From NCBI RefSeq assembly GCF_044324785.1, contig NZ_CP172127.1: DNA of 64,000 nt; one strand, 5' to 3'. The notes beneath the pieces were generated by a model that saw nothing but the letters and a program-made list of their open reading frames with translations, was not told where the DNA came from and did not search any database. Positions 6,446-10,952 of the stretch are shown piece by piece; position 1 is the first letter of the stretch, and each line of letters starts with the position of its first letter. The DNA comes from Escherichia coli (GTDB lineage: Bacteria > Pseudomonadota > Gammaproteobacteria > Enterobacterales > Enterobacteriaceae). The position numbers were made by a program, and so were the translations under genes.

Positions 6446-6730
6446 TCAGGGCAAGCCGAAGGTAGCCTTTTTTATTTCATAATCCTGTAGATATTCTTCC
6501 AGCGGCTTTGCCGTTCCAAGGGAATGAATTTCACCACTGTCTTTATCAATAATAAAAGGTGCGTTACCGGCTAAACGCGCGGCCTCATCTCCAGATTCAA
6601 GAAATTCTTGTGATTCGAAACAGAAATACCAGCCCTGGCTAAAACGTCCATGCAGAGTGATGACGACAGGGAGATCTGCATCATCAAGGTAATGGTTCGC
6701 TTTCGCGAATGCGTCGTGATAAGTAATCAT
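6446..6730 (-). CDS. yrhB: small conserved protein (YrhB-like)
   Basis: 94 aa ORF at the position and size of K-12 yrhB. Confidence 0.7.
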   Translation of the reverse strand: MITYHDAFAKANHYLDDADLPVVITLHGRFSQGWYFCFESQEFLESGDEAARLAGNAPFIIDKDSGEIHSLGTAKPLEEYLQDYEIKKATFGLP

Positions 6731-7188
6731 AATTATAATAAATATTATTGTTGATCGTTATATTATTATTCTTGCGTTATACTTTGAGAAAAGACGCGTT
6801 CATCTTCGTCAAAGATATTATAAAATGCTGGTTTTGAAAAAAGTTCATCGGATAATATACAGTCACGAAATAAGTATCTGCTAATATTTTGTGATTTCTT
6901 TTTCAGAACGTCGAACGGGATTTTCTTATTTAAGATATCAGAATCTTATGATTCGGGTGAAATTCTAACTAAATCAACATGTCACTAAAATCATCATAGC
7001 CATTAGCTATTTCGGCTAAAATGGCTAAAATAGAGATTACATGTCTTCGGTCCATCTCACTTAAGGAGTGTAGTTCCGTTGTAAGTTTTTCCATAGCTTG
7101 CATTGCTAAGTTTCGAACAAGGAATTTTCTGCTGGTAATCTCTAAAAAGATGGCATGGTTTACAATGATTTTTGTTACCTTTTGATTA

Positions 7189-7683
7189 TTATGAACAACT
7201 GTCCATGATTTCGTTTAAGAATGAAGAGAAATCACTAAACGAACTGAATATATTTTCGGTGCCAATATTATCTCTAATTTCAAAAAAGTTACTTTTAATG
7301 TCATAAGTAAATATTGAAATGCTATCATCACCGATCACTAACCGTTCTTGTAGATCAGGGTTTATGAAATCATCATTATTTCTATAAAATTCATTTACGG
7401 CAAAAAGGTTTTTAACTGAAGGTTCTGGAATCGAGAGGCTAAATAATCGTAATCCATTAGCTTCGAATCCATCCATTGCTCTTAAAAAAGTAAGATAATC
7501 AGGTTGATTCTTAAAAAGAATACTAACTTCATTACATAACTTCTCCAGGCAATTAGTTGAATTAGAATTAAATTCTATTTGGATTATACTTTCAATAAAT
7601 GATTCCTTGAGCGGTGCTTCAAATGGATGGTCTAAATCATTCATCATTTTTTTTAATTTATTTATTTGGGTTTTAGTCATCAT
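7189..7683 (-). CDS. candidate immunity protein for the upstream Hcp-HNH effector (positional equivalent of yrhA)
   Basis: 164 aa acidic ORF, start ATGATGA-overlapped with yhhZ stop (translational coupling), AT-rich codon usage. Confidence 0.6.
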   Translation of the reverse strand: MMTKTQINKLKKMMNDLDHPFEAPLKESFIESIIQIEFNSNSTNCLEKLCNEVSILFKNQPDYLTFLRAMDGFEANGLRLFSLSIPEPSVKNLFAVNEFYRNNDDFINPDLQERLVIGDDSISIFTYDIKSNFFEIRDNIGTENIFSSFSDFSSFLNEIMDSCS

Positions 7684-8858
7684 TTTGTGGGTTCCATAAT
7701 ATTTTTCATGAGAGGATAAATTGAGCCAGATGGAATGGCCCAGGGAGTGATTTTGCTTTCACCTACTAATATTCCCTTAGCTATTCGTGATTGCATGTTA
7801 GTAAAAACTTTATGATATGGTTCGTTTTCGATTAATACTAAATTTTCGAAATCATTAGTACCACCATCATCTAGAGATAGTTTATGGTGAACATTATAAT
7901 TTAGAGGAACATTGCCCTTTCTCATTCTTAAAAGGTCTTCGGCGTTGAATCTTCCAGATGCTTCGGAGGTTTTTGCAAGTTTGATAAGAAAATTTTTTCT
8001 TACAGTTTTATTAAACTCCTTTCGTAAGTTAGCTAAGTCTTTTGAAGGTCTCTTAATGTATATTATTTCTATTATGTCTATACCATCAAGAAGTTTTTGT
8101 TGACCTCTAAGTTTGCCTAAGTAACTATTTATTTCTGTATATGTATCAACATTAGAACGCTTTGTTAAAAGAATAGATGCTGTTGCTATCGCTATGCCCG
8201 CTGTTTTTTCATTTAGTATTTGATCATAGCCTTTGATTGCATCTCCACCCAGTTTTTCCGCAGTATCTCTGAATCCTTCAATGTTCCCATTGTATACGCC
8301 ACCAGCAGCAAGTAGCCTGCCAACAGCTTCGCTGTTTAACGTTTTTAAACCATTATTTGTTTTGTTTTTTGAATTTGGTAAAAACAAGCGGTTATAATTT
8401 TCAGGGAGTGCCAAATAGCTGAACTCGGTGTTAGTGATAAGATGTTGGCAGAGGATAAATTCATAACTAACAGTTATTGTTTCTGTATCCAGCTGGTTTT
8501 CAATGATCTGGTGATGAATAGCCGATAAAAAAGCGCCTCTTAGTTGTATATAATAATACTTTTCCCATCTACCAAATCTATTTATTCGATAGAAGTCAAA
8601 TCCCATAAATAATTGTTCATTATTGTTAATGGAATTAATAAATAATGGAGTGCTTTTATCAATTAATTTACAAAATGTTATACCATGGAACTGTGAACCA
8701 AGCCCCGTATTAGAAATACTATTTAAGAGTGAGAATGTAAATATTTCATTCTCATGCCCGCTCTGCCAGCGATTACCTATAGATTCAGTAGTCCCACAAC
8801 CTGCGGAGATGCTTCCTTGTTGTTCTCCCGTTACTGTCAGATAAATAATATTACTCAT
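7680..8858 (-). CDS. yhhZ: Hcp-domain protein with C-terminal HNH nuclease extension (orphan T6SS Hcp-effector)
   Basis: 392 aa; N-terminal Hcp-like region; C-terminal NYNVHHKLSLDDGGTNDFENLVLIENEPYHKV HNH-type motif; very AT-rich. Confidence 0.8.
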   Translation of the reverse strand: MSNIIYLTVTGEQQGSISAGCGTTESIGNRWQSGHENEIFTFSLLNSISNTGLGSQFHGITFCKLIDKSTPLFINSINNNEQLFMGFDFYRINRFGRWEKYYYIQLRGAFLSAIHHQIIENQLDTETITVSYEFILCQHLITNTEFSYLALPENYNRLFLPNSKNKTNNGLKTLNSEAVGRLLAAGGVYNGNIEGFRDTAEKLGGDAIKGYDQILNEKTAGIAIATASILLTKRSNVDTYTEINSYLGKLRGQQKLLDGIDIIEIIYIKRPSKDLANLRKEFNKTVRKNFLIKLAKTSEASGRFNAEDLLRMRKGNVPLNYNVHHKLSLDDGGTNDFENLVLIENEPYHKVFTNMQSRIAKGILVGESKITPWAIPSGSIYPLMKNIMEPTK

Positions 8859-9061
8859 CCCTGAAAAGTCCTTTTATAGCATGCTATTTTATCAATGGCA
8901 CTATTATGCTTGTTAATTGTTATTTATTTACTCCAGGAAATTGTAGGCGTATATATTAAAAAATAAAATATTACACTTTAGGAAGTAATTATGAGGTAAA
9001 TCTCATATATTTATTGGGAAAATAAATACATTAAAGGAAGGTATGCCGATTTTGAATGACA

Positions 9062-9093: not shown

Positions 9094-9582
9094 TTACTTC
9101 ACCCGCGCCATATAATACGCATCGACATATTCACCATTACGTAATGCGTACTTTTTGCCAGTCCCTTCAATCTCAAAGCCGAATTTTTTATAGACCTTAA
9201 TTGCTGGCGCGTTATCGACGAACACCGTTAGTTCAATACGATCTACCCGCAACCAGTTATCGCACATTTCAATCATCTCTCGCATCAGGGCACTGGCGAC
9301 ACCGCGATTCTTCCAGCGGGCGTCGACACAGATACCAAAATCGGCAACATGACTGCGGCGCGGGCGTTGTTGCACGTCAATGGTGAGATGGCCTACGACG
9401 ATTCCATCAATACAGGCGACTAACTGCTTGATGCCGGGACGATCGGCGAGTCGCTCCTGCCACATATGATCGGAAGGATGAGGCACCTGTAGTGTGTTGC
9501 AATACACCTCCGGCTGGGCGTGAATCTGCCTGATGGCCTCGTAATCCCGTGTTTCTGCGTGGCGTATTACTATCTCACTCAT
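9094..9582 (-). CDS. yhhY: GNAT family N-acetyltransferase
   Basis: 162 aa from MSEIVIRHAETRDYEAIRQIH; acetyl-CoA binding RGVASALM motif; the longer ORF to 9660 would overlap the ryhB promoter. Confidence 0.85.
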   Translation of the reverse strand: MSEIVIRHAETRDYEAIRQIHAQPEVYCNTLQVPHPSDHMWQERLADRPGIKQLVACIDGIVVGHLTIDVQQRPRRSHVADFGICVDARWKNRGVASALMREMIEMCDNWLRVDRIELTVFVDNAPAIKVYKKFGFEIEGTGKKYALRNGEYVDAYYMARVK

Positions 9583-9680
9583 TCCTTTGTCCTCTTTGGG
9601 GTAAATGTCCCTTTCAACATCATTGACTTTCACATACGAGTCAAATGCATTTTTTTGCAAAAAGTGTTGGACAAGTGCGA

Positions 9681-9701
9681 ATGAGAATGATTATTATTGT
9701 C
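9681..9701 (+). promoter_or_regulatory. Fur box at ryhB promoter
   Basis: atgagaatgattattattgtc resembles GATAATGATAATCATTATC consensus immediately upstream of ryhB. Confidence 0.7.
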
Positions 9702-9703
9702 TC

Positions 9704-9797
9704 GCGATCAGGAAGACCCTCGCGGAGAACCTGAAAGCACGACATTGCTCACATTGCTTCCAGTATTACTTAGCCAGCCGGGTGCTGGCTTTTTTTT
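9704..9797 (+). ncRNA. ryhB: RyhB iron-responsive small RNA
   Basis: gcgatcaggaagaccctcgcggagaacctgaaagcacgacattgctcacattgcttccagtattacttagccagccgggtgctggcttttttttt matches RyhB as I recall it, with terminator hairpin plus T-run. Confidence 0.92.
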
Positions 9798-9914
9798 TGA
9801 TCTTTCGTTCTCAATTTATCCACGGGAGTGCTTGTGTTCGTTATGCGCACTCCAGTAGGAACCACGTCCGCTTTGCGCTAAGGTGTAAATAACCACCTTA
9901 AAAAGGACGAAATC

Positions 9915-10952
9915 ATGGTCATCAACTGCGCCTTTATTGGCTTCGGCAAAAGCACCACCCGTTACCATCTGCCGTATGTACTTAACCGCAAGGATAGCTG
10001 GCATGTCGCGCATATTTTTCGCCGCCATGCGAAGCCGGAAGAACAGGCCCCCATTTACTCTCATATCCATTTCACCAGCGATCTCGACGAAGTACTAAAC
10101 GATCCCGATGTTAAGCTGGTTGTGGTCTGCACCCATGCGGACAGCCATTTCGAGTACGCGAAACGCGCGCTGGAAGCCGGGAAAAATGTGCTGGTCGAAA
10201 AACCGTTCACTCCGACGCTTGCGCAGGCGAAAGAGCTGTTTGCTCTGGCGAAAAGTAAAGGGCTGACCGTCACGCCATATCAGAATCGTCGCTTTGATTC
10301 CTGCTTCCTGACAGCGAAAAAAGCGATTGAAAGCGGCAAGCTGGGAGAGATTGTCGAAGTGGAAAGCCATTTTGACTATTACCGCCCGGTGGCAGAAACC
10401 AAACCTGGACTGCCGCAGGATGGCGCGTTTTATGGCCTTGGTGTGCATACGATGGACCAGATTATTTCTCTGTTCGGTCGCCCGGATCACGTCGCTTATG
10501 ACATCCGCAGCCTGCGTAATAAAGCCAATCCTGACGACACCTTTGAAGCGCAGCTGTTTTATGGCGACCTGAAAGCCATCGTCAAAACCAGCCATCTGGT
10601 GAAAATCGATTATCCGAAATTTATCGTTCACGGTAAGAAAGGTTCGTTTATTAAATACGGTATCGACCAGCAGGAAACCAGCCTCAAGGCTAATATTATG
10701 CCGGGCGAACCGGGATTCGCGGCGGATGATTCGGTCGGTGTGCTGGAGTATGTCAATGACGAGGGCGTGACGGTCAGAGAAGAGATAAAGCCGGAGATGG
10801 GCGATTACGGGCGCGTTTATGATGCGTTGTATCAAACCATCACTAACGGTGCGCCAAATTACGTCAAGGAATCTGAAGTTCTTACCAATCTGGAAATCCT
10901 TGAACGAGGATTTGAGCAAGCCTCTCCCTCCACAGTGACTCTCGCGAAGTAA
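9915..10952 (+). CDS. yhhX: Gfo/Idh/MocA family NAD(P)-dependent oxidoreductase
   Basis: 345 aa, N-terminal Rossmann GFGKS, recognisable family. Confidence 0.85.
   Translation: MVINCAFIGFGKSTTRYHLPYVLNRKDSWHVAHIFRRHAKPEEQAPIYSHIHFTSDLDEVLNDPDVKLVVVCTHADSHFEYAKRALEAGKNVLVEKPFTPTLAQAKELFALAKSKGLTVTPYQNRRFDSCFLTAKKAIESGKLGEIVEVESHFDYYRPVAETKPGLPQDGAFYGLGVHTMDQIISLFGRPDHVAYDIRSLRNKANPDDTFEAQLFYGDLKAIVKTSHLVKIDYPKFIVHGKKGSFIKYGIDQQETSLKANIMPGEPGFAADDSVGVLEYVNDEGVTVREEIKPEMGDYGRVYDALYQTITNGAPNYVKESEVLTNLEILERGFEQASPSTVTLAK

Follow-up and report, generated by a model that had tools for sequence, protein, structure and literature searches.

RyhB is a central and thoroughly characterised regulator of iron homeostasis. 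In Escherichia coli K-12, ryhB is repressed by Fe2+-Fur and the RNA accumulates on iron starvation; together with Hfq, RyhB pairs with about 20 mRNAs for iron proteins, including sodB and sdhC, blocking their translation and recruiting the RNase E degradosome (PMC8544716). The K-12 gene is annotated as the non-coding RNA ryhB (b4451; NC_000913.3 3580922..3581016, minus strand), with yhhX on one side and yhhY on the other, and was likewise placed between these genes by Chen et al. (PMC2189734). At K-12 ryhB, the same authors described a Fur cluster of 25.2 bits, made up of four overlapping sites within 31 bp and centred at -15, to which binding of Fur was verified by gel shift (PMC2189734). Binding of Fur at ryhB has also been found by EMSA in Klebsiella (PMC3423075). 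The terminator hairpin and U tail of the RNA form the module to which Hfq binds, and this binding is lost in read-through products (PMC4509938).

The locus analysed here lies in a window, the whole stretch of 64,000 nt of E. coli DNA under study, to which all coordinates refer. It is already known, being textbook biology without novelty, and the intact presence of ryhB is expected; the preliminary description of this DNA had also presented it as known biology, and nothing new was found in that respect.

Identification and boundaries of ryhB

When the whole window was searched on both strands with the covariance models of Rfam 15, the sole match above its gathering score was to RyhB (RF00057), at 9733-9797 (+), scoring 83.1 bits (E 3.6e-14) where the gathering score is 55. 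The match spans model positions 1-67 of 67 and is thus full-length, for a model that represents the 3′ two thirds of the RNA only. The ends of the gene were set by projecting the annotation of K-12 MG1655 through an alignment of 100 % identity. Alignment to the Rfam model was the check proposed when 9681-9797 was first assigned to the RyhB RNA and its terminator. With a score well over the gathering score and with identity to K-12, that assignment is borne out, its coordinates being within a few bases of those below.

9704-9798 (+), ryhB gene, encoding the RyhB RNA of about 90-95 nt (projection of K-12 b4451 and RF00057)
9704-9736 (+), variable 5′ part of the RNA, not covered by the Rfam model (variability between genera in the alignment)
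9737-9764 (+), conserved 28-nt core, the target-pairing region, GCACGACAUUGCUCACAUUGCUUCCAGU (GCACGACATTGCTCACATTGCTTCCAGT) (exact copies in at least 120 stretches)
9741-9749 (+), sodB-pairing segment GACAUUGCU, RyhB nt 38-46 (perfect complement of sodB mRNA -4 to +5)
9765-9771 (+), AU-rich linker before the terminator, with which it makes up the Hfq-binding module (PMC4509938)
9772-9798 (+), Rho-independent terminator, with a 7-bp GC-rich stem and 5-nt loop (9772-9790) and a U8 tail (9791-9798)

The 332 bp intergenic region between yhhY and yhhX (window 9583-9914) aligns to that of K-12 MG1655 with two SNPs only, C for A at 9634 and A for G at 9637. Both are on the yhhY-proximal side and upstream of the promoter, therefore the -35 hexamer, Fur box, -10 hexamer, RNA, and terminator are base-for-base those of K-12. 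This intergenic region was found in 5424 of 5426 complete E. coli genomes. The flanking genes are those of K-12 as well:

9094-9582 (-), yhhY, GNAT N-acetyltransferase, divergent neighbour (159/162 identical to K-12 YhhY; Pfam Acetyltransf_1)
9915-10952 (+), yhhX, GFO/IDH/MocA oxidoreductase, downstream neighbour, co-oriented with ryhB (343/345 identical to K-12 YhhX; Pfam)

The identities of YhhY and YhhX, together with the K-12 locus, uphold the earlier placement of the RNA between these two genes. Many of the Enterobacterales, including Yersinia, Photorhabdus, Serratia, and Pantoea, carry two RyhB loci per genome, and a locus of this kind might be a paralogous or decayed copy, comparable to Salmonella RyhB2/IsrE or the second copies of Yersinia, rather than the canonical gene. 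That is extremely improbable here, where the sequence is that of K-12 ryhB and the position is the canonical one between yhhY and yhhX, identity and synteny both refuting it; furthermore, there is a single Rfam RyhB match in the window and a median of one place per E. coli genome. Every defining feature of RyhB that can be tested in sequence, namely the covariance score, core, Fur operator, terminator, sodB complementarity, and synteny, was found. Judged from the sequence, 9704-9798 (+) is the canonical E. coli ryhB, the gene of a Fur-repressed, iron-sparing small RNA, with a probability of about 0.98.

Among the 15 E. coli records listed, PGAP has no feature under the ryhB match, which is put down to incomplete annotation and not to biology. 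As a result, the interval could be mistaken for a hypothetical protein by an ORF caller or a naive reader.

The closest complete RefSeq genomes are not identical to the window; identity reaches 99.4 % for the intergenic region and, with strain N3, 98.8 % for the first 9 kb. On the yhhY side there is a low-GC island at approximately 6500-9000, where the GC content is 0.32-0.36 against 0.52-0.58 in the flanks. It contains yhhZ (7680-8858, minus strand, 392 aa), which is labelled an Hcp1/TssD-family T6SS effector in other genomes and annotated as a putative endonuclease in K-12, an intact yrhA (7189-7683, minus strand, 164 aa), the K-12 copy of which is split by IS1E, and a 44-codon ORF (6969-7103, minus strand). 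Strain PE164 is without the whole island, and ggt adjoins yhhY there. The island has the appearance of a variable toxin/immunity islet of the orphan Hcp-nuclease type.

Promoter and Fur operator

A consensus scan of the upstream region and a search with the 19-bp Fur-box consensus GATAATGATAATCATTATC gave the following elements:

9668-9673 (+), -35 hexamer of ryhB, TGGACA (consensus scan; same in K-12)
9692-9697 (+), -10 hexamer of ryhB, TATTAT (consensus scan; 6 nt upstream of the annotated 5′ end at 9704)
9683-9701, Fur box (operator), GACAATAATAATCATTCTC as read on the minus strand (16/19 to consensus; overlaps the -10 hexamer and ends 3 nt before the start site)

The two hexamers match the consensus at 10 of 12 positions and are separated by an 18-nt spacer. 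They make up the only sigma-70-like promoter detected on the plus strand in 9400-10100, by a simple consensus scan of a kind that can miss real promoters.

The Fur-box match at 9683-9701 has three mismatches and no counterpart elsewhere in the window; 100 dinucleotide shuffles yield none at all. The arrangement extends to other genera, where 113 of 119 RyhB copies have a Fur-like site (five or fewer mismatches) within 90 nt upstream of the core. By comparison, no such site was present in any of the 119 shuffled upstream sequences, nor in any of 110 windows taken 610-700 nt further upstream. The element preceding RyhB had initially been described as Fur-box-like only; it is unique in the window, conserved in relatives, and corresponds to a K-12 site that is bound by Fur (PMC2189734), in full support of that description.

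RNA core, fold, and terminator

Exact copies of the 28-nt core occur in at least 120 stretches from species-representative genomes of Enterobacterales, Aeromonas, and Vibrionaceae, frequently two to a genome; the relatives were chosen by exact core match, making the invariance of the core in the alignment a matter of selection. Covariation was assessed on 99 distinct, aligned short-form RyhBs; across genera, their 5′ 33 nt can barely be aligned.

Within the core, the longest perfect complement of K-12 sodB is the 9-nt segment at 9741-9749, and the complementary stretch of the mRNA, -4 to +5, spans the AUG. A complement of this length is reached by 1.75 % of shuffled sodB targets and by itself is modestly above chance. 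When the full RyhB was hybridized with a 90-nt region of sodB using RNAduplex, the duplex obtained was long and loop-ridden, at -34.8 kcal/mol, and 7.8 % of shuffled RyhBs equal or beat it; this duplex was considered uninformative.

The single-sequence minimum free energy of RyhB gives a z-score of -0.59, no more stable than shuffles, so that stability alone does not flag the RNA. Unexceptional fold stability is usual for a short small RNA with a long single-stranded seed. Structural support comes from the terminator helix, in which 98.4 % of cells are paired and four of the seven pairs show compensatory changes (A-U to C-G or G-C, for example); none of 500 shuffles reaches the observed covariation and it collapses in slid registers. 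At the 5′ end, the RNAalifold consensus fold of 31 Enterobacteriaceae-type RyhBs predicted no helix and no compensatory pairs, the latter because these sequences are too similar. A 5′ stem-loop drawn by hand, which combines UCAGG/CCUGA with an inner helix, reaches 80.6 % pairing but cannot be told apart from shuffles, and the UCAGG/CCUGA helix alone is 92 % paired in Enterobacteriaceae, with no covariation beyond shuffles.

Some of the relatives are organized differently. In Salinivibrio (L061, L081), two RyhB cores stand in tandem at a distance of approximately 300 nt, and a Fur-like box accompanies each of them. In a number of Vibrionaceae loci (L018, L029, L031, L051, and others), there is no terminator near the core.

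Since the RNA and its control region are those of K-12, the published mechanism applies by identity. Transcription of ryhB would start from the sigma-70 promoter (-35 at 9668-9673, -10 at 9692-9697). With ample iron, Fe2+-Fur on the operator at approximately 9683-9701 would occlude this promoter, and when iron is scarce the departure of Fur would allow RyhB to be produced. The transcript is predicted to stop at the intrinsic terminator (9772-9798), the hairpin and U tail of which would also bind Hfq. The targets of the single-stranded core (9737-9764) would then be mRNAs that encode non-essential iron-using proteins, sodB and sdhCDAB among them; pairing at their translation-initiation regions would block translation and recruit the RNase E degradosome, sparing iron. 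Induction through iron and Fur, dependence on Hfq, and target decay by RNase E are established for the K-12 sequence, to which the sequence here is identical, and we infer that the source strain would express and use RyhB as K-12 does.

Overlapping open reading frames

Mechanical ORF calling places two reading frames over the ryhB interval:

9605-9892 (+), 95-codon ORF that runs over promoter, RNA, and terminator and is regarded as spurious
9697-9858 (+), 53-codon ORF overlapping the first

Were either of these a genuine protein-coding gene, the RyhB-like sequence would merely be embedded in it. Neither frame is interrupted in the window or in K-12, and there is a sub-threshold Pfam match, to DZR_2 (E 0.049; 13.9 bits, with the cutoff at 27), which is the best obtained; neither ORF has a Pfam family at cutoff. 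No CDS is annotated at this position in the curated K-12 genome, in PE164, or under the match in the 15 PGAP records listed. Both starts precede the 5′ end of the RNA at 9704, that at 9605 by 99 nt, and the longer frame would require translation across the Fur operator, the promoter, and a strong intrinsic terminator. Moreover, measured from stop to stop, the corresponding frame extends for between 14 and 485 codons (median 56) across the invariant core in 107 further RyhB copies, of which 106 are from other species and one is from K-12. With such a range the frame is not conserved, and on comparison of these sequences the spread is the pattern of non-coding sequence. A coding function is therefore very unlikely for either ORF, and ORF 9605-9892 is very probably spurious. 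The preliminary description had dismissed it as such, and the lack of a Pfam family, the lack of annotation, the upstream start, and the unconserved frame support this, short of formal proof. For annotation hygiene, the appropriate label for the interval is non-coding RNA ryhB, together with its Fur operator, and calling the 95-codon ORF as a protein should be avoided.

In three of the relatives (L113, L106, L102), the equivalent frame is open through the core for 216-485 codons. These long frames are suspected to mirror a neighbouring gene encoded on the other strand.

Relationship of ryhB to its neighbouring genes

The start of yhhX is 117 nt past the ryhB terminator on the same strand, and the promoter and RNA of ryhB might also form the 5′ leader of an extended transcript reaching from ryhB into yhhX, a function that would add to the role of the small RNA rather than replace it. 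Several observations are consistent with this. No second sigma-70-like promoter was detected on the plus strand in 9400-10100, and none at all in 9798-9914, although the simple consensus scan used may overlook real promoters. All 22 of the loci that hold yhhX have it downstream on the same strand. The ryhB terminator is often read through, and ryhB "seems to be co-transcribed" with yhhX, which is unproven (PMC4509938). In addition, iron limitation raises yhhX in the wild-type and not in a deletion of the ryhB promoter (PMC8896160). Conversely, co-transcription is suspected rather than demonstrated in the literature, and termination is enhanced under stress, contrary to induction by read-through (PMC4509938). 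The spacing between ryhB and yhhX ranges from 74 to 1464 nt in relatives, and in Klebsiella the downstream gene is another one (PMC3423075). On balance, a ryhB-yhhX transcript is a tentative proposal that falls somewhat short of being probable; if it exists, read-through of the terminator would make yhhX inducible by iron starvation. A second, weak terminator-like hairpin is present at 9821-9836, between the RyhB terminator and yhhX.

On the other side, yhhY is divergent from RyhB in 47 of the 48 loci with a YhhY homologue (47-97 % amino acid identity), which range from Escherichia to Yersinia, Serratia, Pantoea, and Erwinia. Its start is 143-213 nt upstream of the RyhB core in 47 of the 48, and 155 nt upstream in the window, a tighter spacing than that from ryhB to yhhX (74-1464 nt, same strand in 22/22). 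It could be speculated that the Fur-controlled region of approximately 120 bp is a bidirectional module, and that conservation of yhhY reflects co-regulation of the GNAT acetyltransferase by iron and Fur. This is considered unlikely, and a search of the literature for a link between yhhY and Fur returned statements of location only. Should both bidirectional control and read-through into yhhX be true, yhhY-ryhB-yhhX would be a small iron-starvation unit.

Comparison with known systems

The closest system is K-12 itself. The RNA, promoter, Fur box, and terminator, the neighbours yhhY and yhhX, and their relative orientation are all the same in K-12 and the window. The loci differ in the two spacer SNPs (9634 and 9637) and in yrhA, which is split by IS1E in K-12 and intact in the window.

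The RyhBs of other Enterobacterales, Aeromonas, and Vibrionaceae, such as Klebsiella RyhB and Yersinia RyhB1 and RyhB2, share the identical 28-nt core and the upstream Fur box with the RNA described here, whereas in other genera the 5′ 33 nt have fully diverged from it. In Enterobacterales and Aeromonas, the core is closely followed by a terminator with compensatory stem changes, as it is in the window. The RyhBs of Vibrionaceae, in contrast, have no terminator near the core, in keeping with their longer RNAs. Klebsiella ryhB differs in the gene downstream, which is not yhhX (PMC3423075).

Beyond the family, PrrF of Pseudomonas, IsrR of Staphylococcus, and HrrF of Haemophilus are also Fur-repressed, base-pairing repressors of mRNAs for iron proteins. 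These RNAs are unrelated to RyhB in sequence; the RNA in the window is a true member of the RyhB family and not a mere analogue.
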